From Nitrospiria bacterium (lineage in GTDB: Bacteria > Nitrospirota > Nitrospiria > SBBL01 > JAADHI01), in the NCBI GenBank assembly GCA_046756925.1, contig JBHHXH010000001.1, positions 20,337-84,336 on the forward strand: a stretch of DNA of 64,000 nucleotides. Direction: 5' to 3'. The notes beneath the pieces were generated by a model, which was not told the origin of the DNA, made no database searches, and saw only the letters and a list, made by a program, of their open reading frames with translations. Position 1 is the first letter of the stretch, and the number at the start of each line of letters is the position of its first letter. The position numbers were made by a program, and so were the translations under genes. Positions 8,004 through 45,285 of the stretch are shown piece by piece.

Positions 8004-8999
8004 CTAGTCTACGTAGACGTCTTCGGTCAATGACGAGAGAGGCGGATCGGGGCTTTCGTCCGCGAATTTTACCGCGTCTTGGATGATGCCGTCGATCTCG
8101 TCTTCCATCTTGCGAAGGGCCTTTTCATCGATTTGTTTTTCTTCAAGCAGCCGGTTCTTCAGCCTTTGAATCGGGTCCTTGCATTTCTGCGCGTCAATCT
8201 CTTCCTTGGTGCGATAATGGCCGTGGGCCGGATCGGACATGGAGTGCCCCATGTAACGATAGGTTTGGGCCTCGATGAAGATGGGCCGTTTCGAGGCCCG
8301 GACCCCTTTGATAATCCGTTCCATGTGTTTGTAGGTTTCGAGGATGTTCATGCCGTCGAGATGATGAAAGGGCATGTTGTAGGCCCGTGCAGCATGGGCG
8401 ATGTCGTAAAGGGCCGAGGCGCGTTCAACCGGCGTGCCCATGCCGAAGCGGTTGTTCTCGCAGATGAAGATCACCGGCAGCCGCCAGAGGGCCGCGAGGT
8501 TGAGCGATTCGTGGAAGGCCCCGGTCGGCACCGCCCCTTCACCGAAAAAACACAGTACCACCTGATCGCGCCTTTCGTACTTGATCGCAAAGCCCATGCC
8601 CGTGGCCAAGGCGATGTGACCGCCGACGATCCCGTGCCCGCCCATGAAATGGCGGGAGACATCGAAAAGGTGCATCGACCCGCCCTTGCCCTTGGATACC
8701 CCCGTGGCCTTGCCAAAGAGCTCGGCCATGATGCGCTTGGGTTCCACGCCGCGCGCCAGTGCATGTCCATGATCGCGATAGGTCGAAATGACGTAGTCGT
8801 CTTCCCGCGCGGCCCCGATAGCCCCCACGGCGACCGCCTCTTCGCCGATGTAGAGATGACAGAAACCCGCGATCTTGGCCAAGGCATACATCTCGGCGGT
8901 CTTCTCTTCGAAGCGGCGGATCAATATCGCCGTTCGTAGGAGGCTGCGGAAATCGATGTGATCGCTCTGGCTTTTTGGGTCTGCTTTTGTTTTGGGCAT
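8004..8999 (-). CDS. pdhA: 2-oxoacid dehydrogenase E1 alpha subunit (TPP-dependent)
   Basis: TPP-binding region FFGEGAVPTGAFHESLNLAALWRLPVIFICENNRFGMGT. I trimmed the track start at 9071 to the ATG at 8999 (MPKTKAD...). Confidence 0.88.
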   Translation of the reverse strand: MPKTKADPKSQSDHIDFRSLLRTAILIRRFEEKTAEMYALAKIAGFCHLYIGEEAVAVGAIGAAREDDYVISTYRDHGHALARGVEPKRIMAELFGKATGVSKGKGGSMHLFDVSRHFMGGHGIVGGHIALATGMGFAIKYERRDQVVLCFFGEGAVPTGAFHESLNLAALWRLPVIFICENNRFGMGTPVERASALYDIAHAARAYNMPFHHLDGMNILETYKHMERIIKGVRASKRPIFIEAQTYRYMGHSMSDPAHGHYRTKEEIDAQKCKDPIQRLKNRLLEEKQIDEKALRKMEDEIDGIIQDAVKFADESPDPPLSSLTEDVYVD

Positions 9000-9206
9000 T
9001 AGATAGTGAAATGTACAGATATTGGATATCAATCTTAACATCGGATTTCCGAAAAAGCAAAGCAGGATCACCCTGAGAAGACCGCATTCATTGACCGGTG
9101 TTGGGACAGGAGGGTATACTCGCGGCGATTCGTTTTTTAGGGGAAAATCGTTAGATCAAAGGGTGAATTTAAAGATTTTATTTTTCGATTTGAAAGCTAA
9201 AACAAT

Positions 9207-10388
9207 ATGAAGAGATCGAAAAAGGAAGCAGTCAAAACCGTCGAATCGAAGTTGCGCGCGGCGGGTTGGTTGATTCAAGACGCGGACGATCTGAAGATTC
9301 CTTCGTTCGGAGGGCTGTCGGTTTGTGATGTGCGCTTGTCACGCAATTACGGTATGGCCGACATGCTCCTCTACGTTGATGGCAAAGTCGCGGGATTGAT
9401 CGAGATCGATACCCAAAGCAATGTCTTATTTGGCGTCGATCCCCAAATAGAAAAATACCGACTTGGACTCCCGATCATCTTGCCCGTCTATACCCGGCCC
9501 CTGCCTTTTTTGTATCAGAGCAATGGCGAAGAAATCCGATTCACCAACGCCTTCGATGCCGAGCCGCGAGCGCGAGCGCTCTTTGCCTTTCACAAACCGG
9601 AAACTTTGAAAGCATGGCTGGAAGACGGGATGATCGGCAGCATGCCGCGGGATATGGCGGCCGCGGAATCCATAGAGCATGGCCGACGCGGCGCGACCCT
9701 ACAGGAGCGTTTGTGGATCAATATGCCGCCGCTCATTGAGGATGGGCTTTCGCTGATCCAATGCGACGCCATCAATGCCTTGGAGCAGTCGCTCAAAAAA
9801 AATAATCCGCGCGTGCTCATTCAAATGAAAGATGCAACCGAGAGAAAGGCAACCGCTCTTCATTTGATCAATCGACTGATTCGTTTCGCCGACGCGCGCC
9901 GCGTGCTTTATCTCGTGAATTCGGAAAATATTGGCCGCGAGATCCACAAACGATTTCAAGATTGCGTTTCGCCTTACGACAAAAAGGCCTTGACACAAAC
10001 CTTGCCTGTTCAGCATGTAACAGACAACCAACTGGATTTGAACGCACGGATATGCATCGCAACACTACCGCGCATGTATGACCTATTGACCAATGAAACC
10101 ATGAATGAAAAAGGAAGTGAAAAATCGCCGGAAGAAATTCTCGAAACGGTCGCCCCCCTTCAATACAATCCCGACATCCCCATCGGAACCTTCGATATCG
10201 TCGTCATCGACACCTGCAGTGCTCCCCTTACACGGCACTTTAGGCGAGTACTGGGGTATTTCGATGCCTATGTAATTGGCATGAGCGGAAAAGCGGATGA
10301 GAAGACGGTTGAGTTGTTTGACGGGAATTTGTTACTGGGCGATGAAAAGGATGAAAACGGTGGGCTAGTTGTGATTTCTGAGGTGTAG
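9207..10388 (+). CDS. HsdR-N / SF2-helicase-like protein with degenerate catalytic motifs (probable pseudoenzyme or eroded restriction subunit)
   Basis: The N-terminus resembles the type I restriction R-subunit nuclease domain (ADMLLYVDGKVAGLIEID). It is followed by one RecA-like lobe in which the Walker A position reads LIQMKDATERKATAL and the DEAH position reads FDIVVIDTCS. The protein ends after lobe 1 at 393 aa. Confidence 0.55.
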   Translation: MKRSKKEAVKTVESKLRAAGWLIQDADDLKIPSFGGLSVCDVRLSRNYGMADMLLYVDGKVAGLIEIDTQSNVLFGVDPQIEKYRLGLPIILPVYTRPLPFLYQSNGEEIRFTNAFDAEPRARALFAFHKPETLKAWLEDGMIGSMPRDMAAAESIEHGRRGATLQERLWINMPPLIEDGLSLIQCDAINALEQSLKKNNPRVLIQMKDATERKATALHLINRLIRFADARRVLYLVNSENIGREIHKRFQDCVSPYDKKALTQTLPVQHVTDNQLDLNARICIATLPRMYDLLTNETMNEKGSEKSPEEILETVAPLQYNPDIPIGTFDIVVIDTCSAPLTRHFRRVLGYFDAYVIGMSGKADEKTVELFDGNLLLGDEKDENGGLVVISEV

Positions 10389-10519
10389 TATAAGGAACAC
10401 TTCACAGCATCATAAACTGTACTTCTGATTTCAACACAAACTTCAATAATGTAGCTCCAATGCCTAAAAGATGATTATTACAAGATATGTGCTCTTAGAT
10501 AATCTGAAGCGAGATAACA

Positions 10520-11515
10520 TTGTCTTTCTATGATCAAAACGGGTTCACTCCCGCCTGGTGGTGCAGAAACCCTCATCTCCAAACGGTATGGCGCAAGTTT
10601 TTCGGCGAGATCCCAGCTCTTCCCCTCCGTCGCGAGCGCTGGGAGACGCCCGACGACGATTTTCTCGATCTCGATTTTCTCGATCCTACGACTCAAAGCA
10701 ATGAAGTTCCGACGGTTTTGCTGCTTCACGGCTTCGAGGGCTCTTCACAAGCGAAATATATACTGGGCATGCTGCGTTGGATCGGAAAAATGGGATGGCG
10801 CGGGGTCGCCTTGAACTTCCGGTCGTGCAGCGGAGAGATCAATTGGCAGCCGCGCTTCTATCACTCCGGCGAAACGTGCGATCTCGATTGGGTGATCCAA
10901 AAATTAGCGTCGCGTTTTCCGAGCCGATCTCTTCTCATTGTCGGATTTTCCCTAGGTGGCAACGTTCTTTTAAAATGGCTGGGTGAAAAGGGCGAGCGGG
11001 TGTCCGATTCTGTTCGTGCCGCCGTGGCAATCTCCGTGCCCTTCGATTTGGGTGTCGCCGCCCACAATATCGATTCGGGGTTCGGCAAGCTCTACGGGAT
11101 GAACTTCCTGCAAAGCCTGAAGCAAAAGGTCTTAAAAAAAGAGGAGACCCTTCCCGGACTGATCGATCGAAAGAGGGTCCAGCGGATTCGATCCTATATT
11201 GATTTTGAAGACCGGATTTTCGCACCCATCCATCGATTTAAAGACGCAAGGGATTATTGGACGCGCTGTAGCGCCAAACGTTTTTTGGAAGGCGTGCGCC
11301 GGCCCACGCTCATCCTCCACGCCATGGATGACCCCTTTTTACCGGGCACCACGCTTCCGATAGAGCGCATCCGCCAATCCAAATGGCTTGTGGAAAGGAT
11401 GACCGATTTCGGCGGACATGTCGGCTTTGTGGAAGGGGCTTGGCCCTGGCAGCCGCGATATTGGGCAGAAGCGCAGACGATGGGGTTTTTGACGTCCTTC
11501 ATGAGGGGGGATTAA
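10520..11515 (+). CDS. Alpha/beta-fold hydrolase, YheT-like
   Basis: N-terminal PAWWCRNPHLQTVW motif and nucleophile elbow GFSLGGN. TTG start as given in the track. Confidence 0.75.
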   Translation: MSFYDQNGFTPAWWCRNPHLQTVWRKFFGEIPALPLRRERWETPDDDFLDLDFLDPTTQSNEVPTVLLLHGFEGSSQAKYILGMLRWIGKMGWRGVALNFRSCSGEINWQPRFYHSGETCDLDWVIQKLASRFPSRSLLIVGFSLGGNVLLKWLGEKGERVSDSVRAAVAISVPFDLGVAAHNIDSGFGKLYGMNFLQSLKQKVLKKEETLPGLIDRKRVQRIRSYIDFEDRIFAPIHRFKDARDYWTRCSAKRFLEGVRRPTLILHAMDDPFLPGTTLPIERIRQSKWLVERMTDFGGHVGFVEGAWPWQPRYWAEAQTMGFLTSFMRGD

Positions 11516-35004: not shown

Positions 35005-36240
35005 ATGGTTCGAAGCGCCGATCAACACATCATGATGCCGCCGGAAGATCGTCCCAAGTTACTGACCGGACGCTTTTTCCTTCTTTTTATGGGACATCTC
35101 TTCTTCGGATTCTCCTTTTGGCCTTATGTCCTGTTGCCGGTTTACCTGCAAGACCTGGGTTCCGGCCTCGCGGACATCGGCATTATTATGGGAACCGCCT
35201 CTGTTTCCGGTATTCTCCTCCGTCCTTGGATCGGCGTCGCCCTCGAACGGATTGGACGGCGAAGATGTCTTTTGATCGGGGGCTTGGTCTTTCTCATCGC
35301 ACACCTGCTCTACCTGACGATTGACCGCATCGCTTGGGAAATCTACATGATTCGCCTCATACACGGTTTTGGCATCGGGATTCTCTTTTCTACTTTTTTC
35401 ACCCTTGCAGCGGATATTTCTCCATTATCCCGCCGAACGGAGGGGATCGCCCTTTTTGGGATCGCGGGGCATTTATCGGGCGCTTTGGGCATTCCGCTGG
35501 GAGAACAGATTGTCCGTCTAAGCGGATATCGGGGGCTTTTTCTGGCCTGCGCCTCATTTACCCTCCTGTTTATCCTAATCGGTTTCTTTCTCGCAGATCC
35601 GCCCGTCGAAAAAAAAAGGGGTGATCTATTTGACGTCTATCGATTTGTAAAAACCACCTTCTACCCGTCAAACCGCGTTCCGGTGCTCGCAACGGGTTTT
35701 TTTGCCATCGGACTCACATCATACATGGTTTTTTTAAAACCCTATGCGCATGATATCGGGCTTGGTGTGTCCACTTTTTTCCTGGCCTACAGCCTCACGG
35801 CCGTCTCCATCCGTCTGATTGGAGGGACCTGGCCGGATCGTTTCGGCTTGAAGCGGGTACTCTATCCGTCTTTTGTTTTCCTGGCCGTCGGTATTGCATG
35901 GCTTGGCCTTTGGCCCTCATCTACCGGATTGCTTTTCAGCGGCATGCTTTGCGGCATCGGTCATGGTTTTATTTTTCCAATCCTGTCGGTCTTGTTCATC
36001 AACCGGGCGCCGGATTCGGAACGTGGCGCACGCATGGCCCTCTTTACGCTTTTTTTCGATATCGGTATCTTTATCGGCTCCCCCTTGTGGGGTTTTGTGG
36101 CACATGCCCATGGGTATATATCGATGTTCTTCCTATCGGCCGGCATCGTATTCGTCAGCATTCTTGCCTTTGTGTTCCTCGATCATTCAGACCATTTTGA
36201 TGTGGCTATTGAAAGCAAGCATCTTTCCGATTCAAAATGA
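35005..36240 (+). CDS. MFS transporter
   Basis: 411 aa with about 12 hydrophobic segments and an MFS loop motif-like LERIGRRR. Confidence 0.8.
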   Translation: MVRSADQHIMMPPEDRPKLLTGRFFLLFMGHLFFGFSFWPYVLLPVYLQDLGSGLADIGIIMGTASVSGILLRPWIGVALERIGRRRCLLIGGLVFLIAHLLYLTIDRIAWEIYMIRLIHGFGIGILFSTFFTLAADISPLSRRTEGIALFGIAGHLSGALGIPLGEQIVRLSGYRGLFLACASFTLLFILIGFFLADPPVEKKRGDLFDVYRFVKTTFYPSNRVPVLATGFFAIGLTSYMVFLKPYAHDIGLGVSTFFLAYSLTAVSIRLIGGTWPDRFGLKRVLYPSFVFLAVGIAWLGLWPSSTGLLFSGMLCGIGHGFIFPILSVLFINRAPDSERGARMALFTLFFDIGIFIGSPLWGFVAHAHGYISMFFLSAGIVFVSILAFVFLDHSDHFDVAIESKHLSDSK

Positions 36241-36311
36241 AGGGCATAAAAAAACCAAAGATTGATTTTATCCAATGACCCTGTTATAAAACCTGCATAA
36301 GAATATAAGAA

Positions 36312-36495
36312 CCTTCTCAGGTCAGCCCGCTTGATTGCCGGGCTTGAAAAGGGAATCCCGTGACAATCGGGAGCGGTCCCGCCGCTGTGTTGGGGGACGA
36401 AACCCACAAAAGAGCCACTGTCCAATCGATTCGGATGGGAAGGCGTGGGGAGTAGGGCGAACCCAGAGCCAGAAGACCTGCCTGGATGAAGGAAC
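36312..36495 (+). promoter_or_regulatory. Cobalamin riboswitch, copy 1 (aptamer)
   Basis: AAAAGGGAATCCCGTGACAATCGGGAGC...CCGCCGCTGT, GCCACTGTCC...GGATGGGAAGG and the B12 box AGCCAGAAGACCTGCC. Boundaries are approximate. Confidence 0.85.
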
Positions 36496-36540
36496 TCGCA
36501 AACGGTCTTCGATGGTCAGGACAGCGGGATGGAAAGAGAT

Positions 36541-36579
36541 TCCCCAGCTTTCATCATGAGAAGCTGGGGATTTTTTTTG
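36541..36579 (+). terminator. Intrinsic terminator (expression platform of riboswitch copy 1)
   Basis: Perfect 10-bp stem TCCCCAGCTT / AAGCTGGGGA, a 10-nt loop, then T8. Confidence 0.85.
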
Positions 36580-36606
36580 CTTGAAGAAGGAAACACAACT
36601 CAAACA

Positions 36607-36757
36607 ATCTGAACGGCTGCTCGGGAAGGCGGTGTAAAACCGCAGCTGCCCCGCAACTGTGATGGGAACGAAACCACCAACGCCACTGTCTTGCAAAACC
36701 GGGATGGGAAGGGGTGGGAGTAGGTCGCCCAGAGCCAGGAGACCGGGCCTTTCAGAA
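36607..36757 (+). promoter_or_regulatory. Cobalamin riboswitch, copy 2 (aptamer)
   Basis: P1 TCTGAA/TTCAGA, GGGAAGGCGGTGTAAAACCGCAGCTGCCCCGCAACTGT, GCCACTGTC...GGGATGGGAAGG and the B12 box AGCCAGGAGACCGGGCC. It ends ~35 nt before the receptor ATG. Confidence 0.85.
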
Positions 36758-36790
36758 TCAAAATGACTTTCGAGGGAAAGGAAAATAACA

Positions 36791-38674
36791 ATGAAGAATC
36801 GAATGTGTGAAGTATGTGGTGCAACTGGTTTGTTTTTTGCCTTGTTGATGGGTTTCTCGGGTAACATATTTGCGGAAGAAATAACTGAAGAAGAGCCGAT
36901 GTTGCTGGACCCGATCGTCGTGACGGCGACACGACTTCCATCGCCTGTTCCAGAGGTCGGAAGCAGCATCACCATCATAAAAGGAAGAGATCTTGAGAAA
37001 AAACATATTAAAAGTGTCCCGGAAGCGCTTCGGGAAGTCGCCGGTGTGGATGTTGCGCAGTCGGGCGGACTCGGACAACAGACCTCGGTTTTTCTTCGGG
37101 GGGGGGAATCCAATCACACCCTGGTTCTGATCGATGGGGTCAAGGTCAATAGCCCCACGACAGGCGCTTTTGACTTTGGGGATCTGCTCGTTGAAAATAT
37201 CGCGCGGATTGAGGTGCTAAGAGGCCCCCAGAGTTCCCTTTACGGATCGGAGGCCATCGGTGGCGTCATCAACATCATCACGAAGCAAGGCAAGGGGAAG
37301 GCGTCGATCTCCTTGCTCACCGAGTTTGGATCCTTTGAAACCTTTCGGCAACGCCTTGGTGTTTCGGGTTCTGAAAACGACTTCGATTACACTTTTTCCA
37401 TTTCACGTCTGGAAAGCGAAGGGATTTCCGCGGCCAGTGAACAGCAGGGAAATAGCGAGGAAGACGGTTACAAAAACCTAACGGTGTCTCATCGGGTCGG
37501 CCTCAACTTCCTCAAAGACGGGCGGGCTGATTTCACCGTTCGATACATGACCGGAGAAGACGAGATCGATGCATCTGGCGGGAGTGGCGGAGACGACCTT
37601 AACCAAACCATCGAGCGGGATGCAATCTACACCTCACTGGTCCTCAAAAAACCAGTCACCGACTGGTGGACGCCCTCCCTTCTATTTTCCATCGCGGATG
37701 AAAATATTGAAACGAACGAGCCCGACGATCCGGCGGATACCTTCAATAACAGCCTCACAGAGATCAACGTCCAAGACCTTCTGTTTCTGAATGCATTTTC
37801 TCTTTTGAAAGAAAATACCCTTGTATTGGGGCTGGAGTACGATCAGAAGCAAGGGGCGAGCAGCAGCGGCGATTTCGACAAAGAAGTCGATATCAAATCG
37901 GTCTTTATAGAAGATCAAGCCGCTCTGCGGGATGCCTTATTCCTAACGGTAGGCGTTCGGTACGATGACCACAGTACATTCGGCGACAAGACAACGTTTC
38001 GTGTCACATCAGCCTATTTGATTGACGGATATGGGATGACCTTGCACGCCTCCTACGGCACCGGTTTCACGGCACCCTCATTTAATGACCTCTTCTTCGC
38101 GGGATTTTCTAATAAAGATCTACAAGCGGAGGAAAGCGAGGGGTTTGACATCGGCGTCAGAAAAGAATACCCCAGCAGCGGGGAACGCCCCACATCCTGG
38201 TTCGACGTGACTTATTTCAAAAATGATTTCGACGAGCTCATCGGTTTCTCTGGCTTTCAACCGTTTAACATTAACAAGGCCGAAGCAAGTGGTGTTGAAT
38301 TCACCAGCGGCATCGGTATTGTGAAAGGCTTGGTGATCAACCTTAGTTATACCTACATGGACAGCGAAGACAAAAGCACAGGGGACCCGCTCTTAAGAAG
38401 GGCCAAACACAAAGGCGCTTTTGGGATGGCTTATGATGCCACAAGCCGCCTCAATCTGAACCTGCTCGCAACCGTTGTGGAAGACCGGATTGACATTGGC
38501 GATGTGAAAATGGACGATTATGTCAAGGTCGATTTCGCATCCAGCTATCGCGCCACGGACCAGCTCGAAGGCTTCGCCCGCATCGAGAACCTCTTCGACC
38601 AGACATACGAAGAAATAGTTGGGTTTGGCACCGCTGGTTTCTCGGCTTATGGGGGGGTGACGCTGACCTTTTAA
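36791..38674 (+). CDS. btuB: TonB-dependent receptor, BtuB-like (riboswitch-controlled)
   Basis: TonB box DPIVVTATR, plug motifs (VFLRGGESNHTLVLIDGVKVNSP, IEVLRGPQSSLYGSEAIGGVINI) and a terminal ...GGVTLTF. Cobalamin riboswitches lie upstream. Confidence 0.85.
   Translation: MKNRMCEVCGATGLFFALLMGFSGNIFAEEITEEEPMLLDPIVVTATRLPSPVPEVGSSITIIKGRDLEKKHIKSVPEALREVAGVDVAQSGGLGQQTSVFLRGGESNHTLVLIDGVKVNSPTTGAFDFGDLLVENIARIEVLRGPQSSLYGSEAIGGVINIITKQGKGKASISLLTEFGSFETFRQRLGVSGSENDFDYTFSISRLESEGISAASEQQGNSEEDGYKNLTVSHRVGLNFLKDGRADFTVRYMTGEDEIDASGGSGGDDLNQTIERDAIYTSLVLKKPVTDWWTPSLLFSIADENIETNEPDDPADTFNNSLTEINVQDLLFLNAFSLLKENTLVLGLEYDQKQGASSSGDFDKEVDIKSVFIEDQAALRDALFLTVGVRYDDHSTFGDKTTFRVTSAYLIDGYGMTLHASYGTGFTAPSFNDLFFAGFSNKDLQAEESEGFDIGVRKEYPSSGERPTSWFDVTYFKNDFDELIGFSGFQPFNINKAEASGVEFTSGIGIVKGLVINLSYTYMDSEDKSTGDPLLRRAKHKGAFGMAYDATSRLNLNLLATVVEDRIDIGDVKMDDYVKVDFASSYRATDQLEGFARIENLFDQTYEEIVGFGTAGFSAYGGVTLTF
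37098..37106 (+). repeat. G9 homopolymer inside the btuB-like plug-coding region (codons R-G-G-E)
   Basis: Read directly: CTT CGG GGG GGG GAA. It is in frame as assembled. Confidence 0.95.
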
Positions 38675-38864
38675 ACACCTATATTTTATTAAAACTTGAG
38701 ATCGCCAGCCTTTTTTCACAACGCAATTGAAGGTTGTCTCGAAGGTAATCCAACGTGATGCCATCATCTTGAACGAACCGTTTTAGGAAGCAATGGCAAT
38801 TTAAAAATTGTCTCGTGTAACAAAGGGAAAGCAGGCGTATTGTGTCTCTACCCAACGTAAAATT

Positions 38865-38888
38865 TTTCCATTTCCATTTCCATTTCCA
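38865..38888. repeat. Hexanucleotide tandem repeat (TTTCCA) x 4
   Basis: Read directly. It lies in the 790-bp non-coding gap. Confidence 0.9.
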
Positions 38889-39464
38889 ATGGTTATGATG
38901 CGGAAATACGATCACGAAAGCCTCTCCGGACCGGGCCGCGCAACCGCTTCGTGAACTGGAGGAAAGCGGGTGGACACGACATCACCTTCAAACCGCTTGA
39001 CCTCATCCCCTTTCAGGATTCAGTTGAGATTGAGTGAAGGAACGGCCACCGTGCTTGTGAATACTTTCTTCAATCGATAAACTTATGAGAAGCAATCAAA
39101 GCGATTTTTATCGTGAAGAAGACTGTACGCTCTAAACGGGTATGTATTTTCGGACCAAGGAGAAATAAAGAAGGAATTAACAGCGATAACATTAAAATTG
39201 ACTCCTTTCTCTACTTAACGTGATCAGGCTGAGCCCCCTACGGGACCAAAGGGCTTTCTTCCAAGTTCTACCGGGTCGGCTTTTAAACGGGGCATGCTGC
39301 TGGCAATTTAATAATTGTGTATGTTAATTTCTGGCCAATGCCCACTAAAGTGCCTGTTTTGGCATATATTGCCTGGATAAGCGGCTGTTCACAGCCGAGC
39401 GGCTTGGCCGACCTTTATGCTGGTCTGGTTCTGGGCACCTCGCCGAAACAGCAAGGAAAATCCG

Positions 39465-40725: not shown

Positions 40726-41325
40726 ATGCGCATCACAAAAGTCTACACCCGCACCGGGGACAAAGGCACGACCCGCCTGGCCAGGGGGCAGGAAATCCCA
40801 AAAGACCATCTTCGCATCGAAACCTACGGCACGGTCGATGAGCTGAACGCCATTGTCGGCCTGGCGCGGGCCTTCGCCCAAGAACTCCCGAAAACGATGC
40901 CGGAGCGAGATCGGCTCGACGAATGCCTGCACGGGATGCAGGACCGGCTCTTCGACATCGGCGGCATTCTGGCCTCGCCGCCTGGACAAGAATCGAAAGA
41001 GATGAAAGCGATCCTAAGCCAAGAAATCGACGCCCTGGAATCCTTGATGGACGACTGTCAAAAAGACCTTGAACCCTTGAAGGAATTCATCTTGCCGGGC
41101 GGCGGCAAGGTTGCGGCCTTTCTCCATCAGGCGCGGACGGTCTGCCGACGGGCGGAACGGCTTTGCGTGAGGCTCAACCGGGAGGAGGGTGTGCCGGAAG
41201 AAGTCCTCCGCTATTTGAACCGCTTGAGCGATGCCTTCTTTGTGCTTTCTCGCTGGATTGCGCAGGCCCAAAACGAACCTGAAACCCTGTGGCGGCGGCA
41301 TCAAAAGGATGAGCAGAAAATCTAA
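40726..41325 (+). CDS. PduO-type ATP:cob(I)alamin adenosyltransferase
   Basis: [18 protein letters not shown]...[15 protein letters not shown]...LPGG. 199 aa. Confidence 0.88.
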
Positions 41326-41997
41326 AACCCAATACCTCATGATTCAAGGCACCGGCTCGCACGTGGGCAAAAGCGTCATCGTCGCGGCGCTCTGCCGGAT
41401 CTTCGCCAACCAGGGTCTGCGCGGCGCTCCCTTTAAAGCGCAAAACATGGCGCTCAATTGATGGGAATCTGCGGCGGTTATCAGATAATGGGAAAGGTCC
41501 TGATCGATCCGGAAAAAATCGAGTCGGACCTGGGCGAGATGGAAGACCTCGGCCTCTTGGATATCGCCACCGAGTTCCGGCCAGGAAAGATCACGGCACG
41601 GGTTTCGTTGCCCCTTAGGGCATGTCCTCCTCTTTTTTCCGAAGCGGGGGAAATCCTATCTGGCTACGAAATTCATGCGGGCATCAGCCGCCCCATTGGA
41701 TCTCAGAATACACCCTTATTTACCTCTCCGTCTTCCGATGCCGGGCACGTCGCAGGCCTCATCGACTCCCCCGGCCTTCTCTTCGGCACGAGACTGTACG
41801 GCCTTTTCGAAAACGATGGGTTTCGGCGACGCTTCGTCAATGTCCTGCGAATCCGGAAAGGACTCACGCCGATCTCCACGGCGCTCATCCTATATCGTAA
41901 TATTGAAGACCGACAGATCGAAGACTGGGCGGGCTTCGTTTCGAAAGCCCTCAACCTCGATTGGATCGAAGCCATGATTGCGGAACACCATCGATGA
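41309..41997 (+). pseudogene. cobQ: Cobyric acid synthase (cobQ/cbiP) relic with a large internal deletion and a frame change
   Basis: The N-terminal 50 aa ([22 protein letters not shown]...FKAQNMALN) ends at TGA 41459-41461. It is followed immediately in another frame by the C-terminal GATase part (GICGGYQIMG...GYEIHAG...GTRLYGLFEN). The middle of the protein is absent. Confidence 0.8.
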
Positions 41998-44208: not shown

Positions 44209-45285
44209 ATGAAACTGATACCGCACGATTTGCCAGGTGCCCTGTCTTCAATGTCTTCGTTAACCCGGCACGATAAGGACCTGAAAACGCTTGAAGACAT
44301 GGAAGCATCTCGGCTTCAAATCAATATTGAAAAAAGGTCCGATTTTACGCTTTTTACCAAGGATGGGGACAAGGTAACCCTCTCTTCTCTTGCAAGCCTA
44401 GAGGCCGGCACGACAACTTACACCTCTGAAGGCACCCTGACGGGAGAAGCGGCCCAAACGGAGGTCGATGCATTTCAGGTAAACAAGGCCTTCGAGCTTG
44501 AACTGTCCGTCGAAGGCGACCTGAATAAACAGGAGATCAAGGACATCCGGCGCGCCTTTACGCAAATGCGGAAAATGGTTAAGAATTATATTACCGGCAG
44601 AGAAGATAAGGCCATGCATCGGGCATCGAAGATCATGAACTTTAAGTCGATTTCGGGTTTTGAAGCCGTTTATCAATATGTGCGAACGGCTTCGGCTTAC
44701 GAGGGATCGCTGGAGGACGGCATGCCACTCCCTCTCGGCCCGGGAAACCCGGCCCCAGCCCCCGCCGTTATGGAACCGGTTAAAGAAGAACCCGCGCCAC
44801 CCCAAGAAACGCTTGCTTCCCAGCCCCTTCCTGTTTCCGATCCGAGCAGCGCGGGCCCCGCCGCCGTCCAAACGGTCGCACCGTCCGTGGATGACCCTGC
44901 CCCTGTCTCCCCGCTTCCCACCAACGAGAGTACGGGTGAGGACATCCCTTCTGCACCGGGTTTAACCAATGTGTCACCCGCCAAACCCTTTATACAGGTT
45001 GAGATTCATCAGCTTGTTGAAAAGATGACGCAAGTGGTTGTTGAATCGAATGCAGATACTGGAAAACTCGCGAAATATACAAGCCAATACCTCAATTCTT
45101 TATCAGCAAGTTATTCTCGGACGGAGGATGGATACGCTTTCGAGCTCAAGCTCGTCAAACAAATCCAAGCTGAATTTAAATTGAGCATCCAAGAAGCCAT
45201 CGGAGCCGGAAAAGCCGAGGAAAATGAAGACGCATCCGTCGCCGCGCATCCCGCTGCCCAAGATGAAGAGACGGTCATGGCCTAG
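44209..45285 (+). CDS. Hypothetical protein with a central proline-rich linker
   Basis: 358 aa with the RBS TAGGAGGG. Two structured-looking ends are separated by a Pro/Ala/Ser-rich stretch of ~90 aa. No family recognised. Confidence 0.5.
   Translation: MKLIPHDLPGALSSMSSLTRHDKDLKTLEDMEASRLQINIEKRSDFTLFTKDGDKVTLSSLASLEAGTTTYTSEGTLTGEAAQTEVDAFQVNKAFELELSVEGDLNKQEIKDIRRAFTQMRKMVKNYITGREDKAMHRASKIMNFKSISGFEAVYQYVRTASAYEGSLEDGMPLPLGPGNPAPAPAVMEPVKEEPAPPQETLASQPLPVSDPSSAGPAAVQTVAPSVDDPAPVSPLPTNESTGEDIPSAPGLTNVSPAKPFIQVEIHQLVEKMTQVVVESNADTGKLAKYTSQYLNSLSASYSRTEDGYAFELKLVKQIQAEFKLSIQEAIGAGKAEENEDASVAAHPAAQDEETVMA

Follow-up and report, generated by a model that had tools for sequence, protein, structure and literature searches.

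Tandem riboswitches for adenosylcobalamin (AdoCbl) were first reported by Sudarsan et al. 2006, as cited in PMC9481103, and 26 AdoCbl doublets have been counted and classed as 'pseudo-cooperative' (Sherlock et al. 2022, PMC9481103). The same work describes 'bi-mechanism' tandems, in which a terminator comes first and a ribosome-binding site (RBS) second, with SAM-II/SAM-V and SAM-II doublets as examples; other doublets, those for AdoCbl included, were not systematically examined for this property (PMC9481103). Here, we describe a leader of ~495 nucleotides (nt) upstream of a gene for a BtuB-like TonB-dependent receptor in a 64,000-nt stretch of DNA from a Nitrospiria bacterium (contig JBHHXH010000001.1, positions 20,337 to 84,336; hereafter the window). 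The leader carries two complete cobalamin riboswitches, copy 1 and copy 2, which probably act as two independent OFF switches in series on one transcript, the first controlling transcription and the second translation. The locus fits both the pseudo-cooperative and the bi-mechanism definitions.

Like the known AdoCbl doublets, the window places two complete same-class riboswitches, both with a platform of their own, ahead of one open reading frame (ORF); they are separated by <300 nt, without an ORF in between, and both there and here the dose response is expected to be steeper and shut-off tighter. In the window, the second platform has no terminator, and the two aptamers differ, one with and one without the P2 arm. 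SAM-II/SAM-V and some SAM-II doublets share with the window the use of same-ligand sensors to control transcription and then translation, although the ligand and fold of SAM-II/SAM-V differ from those seen here (cobalamin, RF00174). The tandem thiamine pyrophosphate riboswitch of Bacillus anthracis tenA, as presented in PMC9481103, also resembles the window in that independent riboswitches for the same ligand are expected to give a more digital response without true cooperativity, but both of its units have terminators and its ligand class is a different one.

Among single riboswitches, the Cbl-I architecture is defined by a P2 arm together with a long P6 extension (PMC7367189), and a kissing loop between L5 and L13 stabilises the P13 hairpin, which hides the RBS or allows a terminator to form (PMC10327014; PMC7367189). 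In the mutationally tested model for metE of Priestia megaterium, the kissing loop stabilises P13, the antiterminator is blocked, and the terminator acts (PMC10327014). In this riboswitch, in that of Escherichia coli btuB and in env8HyCbl, L5 is UCCCG or closely similar and makes a kissing contact with L13, as is predicted for the window; the transcriptional type sets P13 against an antiterminator, the translational type uses P13 to hide the RBS, and the same designs can be read in the window. The bulge in the env8HyCbl kissing loop has a predicted counterpart here, and E. coli btuB is the same regulated gene. All three are single riboswitches, whereas the window joins one of each type in one leader, and its copy 1, unlike any of them, has an additional invariant block that pairs with the B12 box of the aptamer.

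The earlier note on this DNA, made by reading the letters, had claimed two complete cobalamin riboswitches in a single 5' leader, and the covariance-model search that it proposed bore this out. When the whole window was scanned with Rfam cmscan, copy 1 matched RF00174 at 36304-36499 (118.6 bits, E 4e-29) and copy 2 at 36598-36765 (87.9 bits, E 2.5e-20), both far above the gathering score of 31.5. Each match spans model positions 1-189 of 189; the two do not overlap, lie 98 nt apart, and are the only Rfam matches in the window to reach the gathering score. The sequence features picked out in the note were all found in place, namely, the B12 boxes of copy 1 (AGCCAGAAGACCTGCC, 36467-36482) and copy 2 (AGCCAGGAGACCGGGCC, 36733-36749), the P1 stem of copy 2, and the terminator of copy 1. 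The minimum free energy fold of the whole leader contained two separately closed aptamer domains with the terminator in between. A glycine-type cooperative riboswitch, in which two aptamers serve one platform, was rejected because of these two separate domains and the strong conserved terminator between them. What remains is a tandem of two complete same-ligand aptamers, with no conserved ORF between them and a gap of <=300 nt, each with an expression platform of its own; that the second platform actually switches is something we infer. The features of the leader and the two genes that flank it, in window coordinates, are as follows.

35005-36240, gene for a major facilitator superfamily (MFS) transporter; its stop at 36240 is the 5' edge of the leader region
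36262-36290, plus strand, putative sigma-70 promoter: -35 TTGATT at 36262-36267, 17-nt spacer, -10 TATAAA at 36285-36290
36304-36499, plus strand, copy 1 aptamer (RF00174): P1, P2 arm, P3-P6 junction and long P6 extension
36504-36522, plus strand, candidate P13/L13 of copy 1: stem GUCUU (36505-36509) with AGGAC (36518-36522), loop CGAUGGUC (36510-36517)
36520-36552, plus strand, predicted antiterminator, in which AGCGGGAUGGAA and the 3' part of P13 bind the 5' arm of the terminator; it contains CGGGA
36541-36578, plus strand, intrinsic terminator of copy 1: stem 36541-36570 of 11 bp (6 G-C) with an 8-nt loop, then T8 at 36571-36578
36579-36607, plus strand, 29-nt spacer from the terminator to P1 of copy 2
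36598-36765, plus strand, copy 2 aptamer (RF00174): P1, P3-P6 junction and long P6 extension, no P2
36767-36783, plus strand, P13/L13 platform of copy 2: CUUU (36767-36770) with AAAG (36777-36780), L13 CGAGGG (36771-36776)
36791-38674, plus strand, TonB-dependent receptor, BtuB-like, 627 amino acids (aa), with Pfam Plug and TonB_dep_Rec_b-barrel domains

Conservation was examined in contigs encoding the closest receptor homologues and in one metagenome contig retrieved with a 33-nt string of copy 2, all scanned with Rfam (loci are given by L numbers). The doublet occurs in the same order and spacing in L005 (L006 has the identical sequence), L007, L011 and L013, copy 1 of L007 being cut by the contig end; in L004, copy 2 lies at the contig end and the upstream part is cut off. 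Most of these doublet loci are Nitrospiria-like, and the composition of the doublet is constant: copy 1 with P2 and a terminator, copy 2 with neither. L010 has the MFS-riboswitch-receptor synteny of the window but a single copy-1-type riboswitch followed by the same terminator, and the outgroups L012, L014, L015 and L016 have one riboswitch each. Receptor identity to the window is 66-71% across the doublet loci and only 37% in L013. Identity within each set of aptamers is much higher, at 80-96% for copy 2 and 73-87% for copy 1, whereas loops, spacers and linkers vary or resist alignment among the orthologues.

Base pairing is maintained in both units, and the relatives keep the B12 box and the helices of the P3-P6 junction. 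With structures derived from Rfam, 93.7% of pair cells were standard for copy 1 plus its terminator (five sequences) and 96.3% for copy 2 (six sequences, mean column identity of 88%), compared to 34-57% in a control in which the pairing partners were slid; three pairs of copy 1 and its terminator, and three P1 pairs of copy 2, had changed on both sides. The RNAalifold structure of the copy 2 alignment mis-paired L5 with the GGG of J3/4 and was set aside in favour of the Rfam structure. Both copies look to be under selection, and neither looks decayed, with the sequences too similar for strong covariation statistics.

Copy 1 has the canonical Cbl-I architecture, with a P2 hairpin at 36324-36344 that is conserved with a compensatory change, a long P6 extension, and an L5 (UCCCG, 36377-36381) identical to the published consensus (PMC10327014). 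Just downstream of the aptamer lies GGUCUUCGAUGG (36504-36515), a block with complementarity to the B12 box CCAGAAGACC (CCA/GAAGAC), with which it pairs in unconstrained folds of 5 of 6 loci. The doublet clade and L010 have this anti-B12-box block, GTCTTCGATGG, without variation, while L015 differs with GCCTTCGATGG; GUCUUCGAUGG is common to all copy-1-type loci, its counterpart in L015 being GCCUUCGAUGG. The P13 hairpin, formed by the anti-B12-box block with GAGAC/AGGAC, is likewise common to these loci. When the loop of this hairpin was taken as CG..GGN, 34 of 35 cells of the L5-L13 contact were paired, and the fifth pair is U-A in four sequences and G-C in L011 and L013, where L5 reads GCCCG. 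GGGA/CGGGA (36525-36529) was also tried as the L13 of copy 1; it is a perfect partner in the window and L015, but the U-to-G change in L5 of L011 and L013 goes uncompensated. The loop CGAUGGN of the upstream hairpin is the better fit, and both are kept as possibilities.

The predicted antiterminator was seen when the nascent RNA was folded without the 3' arm of the terminator, and from this its presumed role follows; equivalent hairpins that sequester AUCCCC form in L005, L007, L011 and L013. The earlier note had given copy 1 a perfect intrinsic terminator of its own, and the terminator scan counted a stem of 11 pairs at this site, followed by T8. The hairpin has a free energy of -19.2 kcal/mol in the window and of -15.8 to -18.7 kcal/mol, again with a U-tract, in L005, L007, L011, L010 and L013; the terminator is present in all six loci in which this region is readable, and an equivalent exists in L015.

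In copy 2, the P2 arm is absent in all six loci, 23 model positions being replaced by a 3-nt J1/3 (36619-36621). Copy 2 therefore falls outside the Cbl-I class with regard to P2 and agrees with it in the long P6 extension, which is aligned throughout in both copies (GCCACUG...GGGAAGG...GAGUAGG...CCCAGAGCCAG). Its P1 (36608-36618 with 36746-36756) pairs UCUGAA at 36608-36613 with UUCAGA at 36751-36756, is extended by GGCU/GGCC, and shows compensatory changes in the orthologues; its L5 is CCCCG (36649-36653). As the earlier note had said, copy 2 ends close to the start codon without a terminator: its P1 closes 34 nt 5' of the ATG at 36791, and none of the loci has a terminator or T-run 3' of copy 2 ahead of the start codon.

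What lies in this interval instead is a second candidate P13/L13 hairpin. The Shine-Dalgarno purines GAGGGAAAGGA are located inside and just 3' of it, within a 14-nt block, CTTTCGAGGGA[G/A]AG, that is kept in 6 of 6 loci between flanks that vary on both sides. In its RNA form, CUUUCGAGGGA(G/A)AG, the block can fold into a 4-bp P13 with the loop CGAGGG. The stem covaries, being CUUU/AGAG or CUUU/AAAG in copy 2, CCCU/AGGG in L014, AAUCU/AGAUU in L012 and CCUU/AAGG in L016; the riboswitches of the last three loci are single ones close to the start codon, with a P13/L13 design like that of copy 2. In 9 of 9 sequences of the copy-2-type riboswitches, 5 pairs can form between L5 and L13 if one base is bulged out, and in L012 one of these pairs has changed on both sides, from C-G to U-A. 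By itself, with the loop open, the P13 hairpin has only marginal stability (+1.3 to -2.9 kcal/mol).

The position of the start codon bears on this platform. The deposited protein has 623 aa and begins at the second methionine (Met5, 36803). The ATG at 36791 is conserved in all orthologues, whereas the second methionine is an isoleucine in L013, and a start at 36791 places the conserved Shine-Dalgarno block at a normal distance; judged by these alignments, 36791 is more likely to be the start than 36803.

A promoter-like element lies 5' of copy 1. The hexamers listed above are accompanied by TG at the extended -10 position (36282-36283), giving a predicted transcription start at ~36296-36298, and the arrangement TTGATT-17-TAtAAn recurs in the alignment of L005, L011 and L010 and can be made out in L013. 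The element was read by eye, as the consensus scanner left it out because position 6 of the -10 hexamer is A. In the 29-nt spacer, the promoter scan detected no promoter-like site or hexamers. The spacers of the doublet loci neither align nor share a conserved sequence or length, and small ORFs at 36486-36584 and 36529-36612 (27-32 aa) are not conserved in the orthologues.

Taken together, these elements suggest the following mechanism. With corrinoid bound, the B12 box of copy 1 would be held in the aptamer and L5 (UCCCG) would kiss the P13/L13 loop at 36505-36522; formation of P13 would block the antiterminator (36520-36552), allowing the terminator at 36541-36578 to stop RNA polymerase. Without ligand, GUCUUCGAUGG would pair with the B12 box, the antiterminator would sequester the 5' arm of the terminator, and polymerase would read through. 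Transcripts that escape would carry copy 2, whose L5 (CCCCG) is predicted to kiss the L13 (CGAGGG) of the weak 4-bp hairpin at 36767-36780, and ligand would then keep translation from starting at 36791 by stabilising the Shine-Dalgarno hairpin. The effects of the two switches would multiply: shut-off should be tighter and the dose response steeper than with a single switch, and completed mRNAs could still be silenced later.

Several points weigh against this scheme. Ligand binding, the direction of control, termination, translational repression, both kissing loops and the lack of an internal promoter are all deduced from sequence. In copy 1, the fifth pair of the kissing loop is a U-U mismatch in the window itself, the L5-L13 contact shows one compensatory event, shuffle controls were not significant, and CGGGA at 36525-36529 offers a rival partner as the second perfect complement of L5 in the window. 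In L005 and L007, enforcing the copy 1 aptamer alone does not remove the antiterminator. For copy 2, covariation of L5 with L13 again amounts to one event, thin support for a kissing loop, and no ligand-dependent switch in secondary structure was found. In the comparison of folds with and without the aptamer enforced, which the earlier note had suggested, the accessibility of the Shine-Dalgarno sequence was unchanged, with a mean unpaired probability of ~0.45 in either case. This is expected if the switch is tertiary; the copy 2 switch would then rest entirely on the kissing loop, which is beyond secondary-structure folding. In addition, L010 works with copy 1 alone, and copy 2 is thus dispensable in at least one lineage. 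Finally, by sequence alone, transcription may also start within the spacer.

How the two copies are related was assessed by comparing the aptamers with each other and with the outgroups. Over the aptamer core, the mean identity of copy 1 is 72% to copy 2 and 74% to the L012 riboswitch, to which copy 2 is 68% identical; in a second alignment, copy 1 and copy 2 are 63-68% identical, compared to 78-81% for copy 1 and the single riboswitch of L015, whose receptor is ~42% identical to that of the window. Upon clustering, copy 1s group with copy 1s and copy 2s with copy 2s. The near-identity of the 3' halves, from which the earlier note had proposed a local duplication, holds as a similarity, but the motifs concerned (GGGAAGG..GUGGG.AGUAGG..CCCAGAGCCAG) are present in the outgroups too, and on these alignments the likeness is family conservation rather than a special kinship of the two copies. 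A recent local duplication was rejected, as copy 1 is no closer to copy 2 than to outgroup riboswitches, and the doublet appears better described as two old riboswitch lineages in series.

Alternatively, the leader might be a two-input device whose copies have diverged in corrinoid selectivity, copy 1 reading, for example, AdoCbl and copy 2 another upper-ligand form, a cobamide or an incomplete corrinoid, which would make it a NOR gate over two pools. The copies are old, separately conserved and 63-72% identical depending on the alignment; in all six loci they differ consistently in a selectivity-linked element, the P2 arm of copy 1 as opposed to the 3-nt J1/3 of copy 2; and the combination of P2/J1/3 with the P6 extension has been tied to selectivity, the hybrid architecture being promiscuous (PMC7367189). 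The downstream genes described below, with an adenosyltransferase present and a CbiA-like gene decayed, also suggest a corrinoid salvager. Both copies nevertheless match the same RF00174 core and have a long P6 extension, which is regarded as the chief factor in recognising the adenosyl group (PMC7367189), and cobalamin riboswitches are, according to PMC9600662, broadly sensitive to many corrinoids. Since this extension is taken to accommodate the adenosyl group, AdoCbl is the predicted ligand of both copies; the P2/J1/3 difference may still leave room for different selectivity. We regard the two-input device as unlikely, and as equally doubtful the related view that the doublet joins two old, distinct lineages with different corrinoid ligands, P2-containing and transcriptional on the one hand and P2-less and translational on the other, by which a salvager would gate its importer on two pools and at two levels.

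Two further possibilities would leave one copy alone in charge of the receptor. If the copies lay on separate transcripts, copy 1 with its terminator would form a closed unit, as a relic or as a small RNA ended by the riboswitch, and control of the receptor gene would fall to copy 2, driven by its own promoter in the spacer. The strong terminator 3' of copy 1 would suit such an arrangement, and a copy-2-type riboswitch is sufficient by itself, as it stands alone before btuB homologues in L014, L016 and L012. However, the spacer is only 29 nt long, has no promoter-like hexamers, and is conserved in neither sequence nor length among the doublet loci, the conserved promoter-like element being located 5' of copy 1; purifying selection on the copy 1 aptamer is clear; and in L010 and L015 a copy-1-type switch with the same terminator directly precedes btuB, which marks it as a cis regulator. 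Separate transcripts thus seem very unlikely. Least probable of all is that one copy is a decaying, non-functional duplicate: each copy has a conserved expression platform of its own, pairing is preserved with compensatory changes, and both are kept at 73-96% identity in four to five further loci, where the proteins are at 66-71% or 37%. The lower score of copy 2 (87.9 bits) and its few non-canonical pairs might be taken as signs of decay, but the score reflects mainly the absent P2, which is also absent in the functional-looking single riboswitches of L012 and L014; the loss of copy 2 in L010, which keeps copy 1, is the other point in favour of a dispensable duplicate. Two OFF switches in series on one transcript thus remain the likely reading.

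Tandem riboswitches of one class are uncommon, as the earlier note had said, but the kind is already described, by the 2006 report and the 26 AdoCbl doublets (PMC9481103). The double control here is real and conserved, would not surprise specialists, and leaves the current understanding of riboswitches unchanged. Specific to this locus are the different architecture and platform type of the two units, the conservation of the pair in a Nitrospiria-like group, and the existence of natural single-unit relatives. These relatives provide natural controls, with the first unit alone in L010 and L015 and the second-type unit alone in L014 and L016, and the set is suited to asking whether stacked B12 switches sharpen or deepen repression and which corrinoids a P2-less aptamer with a long P6 extension prefers. 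In microbial communities, uptake of B12 is among the key dependencies, and the Nitrospirota are environmentally important, with little experimental genetics.

In a neighbour-joining tree of the receptors, L010 falls inside the doublet-bearing group, adjoining the window. We tentatively regard loss of copy 2 from L010 by a clean deletion as the more economical reading of its single riboswitch. In the same locus (L010, 1740-2063), the stretch AATCACATTAAATCAAATGAGG 3' of the terminator resembles the sequence 3' of P1 of copy 2 in L005.

The L013 locus (8193-10590, minus strand) combines a leader ~86% identical to that of L011 in both aptamers, with both platforms present and a similar signal peptide, with a receptor that is 37% identical to the L011 and window receptors and more divergent than those of the outgroups. 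The leader may have been recombined onto a different receptor gene, and the ~500-nt leader, with the signal-peptide region attached, might even travel from one receptor gene to another as a cassette, as the comparison of L013 with L011 would suggest.

Two observations concern the leader itself. In L005 (2768-2802) and L007 (263-300), the spacer is longer and contains an extra hairpin, the stems of which are AUCAGGG/CCCUGAU and GAUUAG/CUAAUC, respectively; this hairpin is absent from the window, L011 and L013. On the minus strand, a mechanically called ORF of 263 aa at 36322-37113 runs antisense to the two riboswitches and to the first part of the receptor gene; it lacks a Pfam match and probably exists only because the sense strand is rich in purines.

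An NCBI protein of a Nitrospiria metagenome-assembled genome matches the receptor protein at 100% identity. The receptor has thousands of homologues, many of them named 'vitamin B12 transporter' by the Joint Genome Institute (JGI), while a search of genome contigs with the receptor protein returned distant Bacteroidota matches only. Downstream of it are genes for a periplasmic binding protein, a PduO-type cobalamin adenosyltransferase, a fragment with a CobB/CobQ-type amidotransferase domain, a second binding protein and a FecCD permease. Such a locus for B12 uptake and salvage is what cobalamin riboswitches most typically control.

Between the receptor and the next binding-protein gene lies a 740-nt stretch (38675-39416) with a (CCATTT)3 repeat at 38868-38885. 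It contains no ORF of >=80 aa, other than the end of a mechanically called minus-strand ORF, and no Rfam match. L004 and L008 carry an aminotransferase gene at this place, of which no decayed remnant was found in the gap. On the 3' side of the FecCD permease is a 358-aa ORF (44209-45285) without a Pfam match, where, by analogy with L005, L012 and L014, the ATP-binding cassette (ABC) ATPase BtuD would be expected.

Lastly, the amidotransferase-domain fragment appears to be part of the remnant of a CbiA/CobB-like cobyrinic acid a,c-diamide synthase gene at 41324-41997. About 38 N-terminal residues match at 41324-41437, and the C-terminal GATase_3 domain is encoded by an ORF at 41458-41997 in a frame other than that of the N-terminal remnant; the corresponding protein of L004 has 458 aa. 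The gene appears decayed, which suggests the loss of steps of de novo corrinoid synthesis in a salvager.

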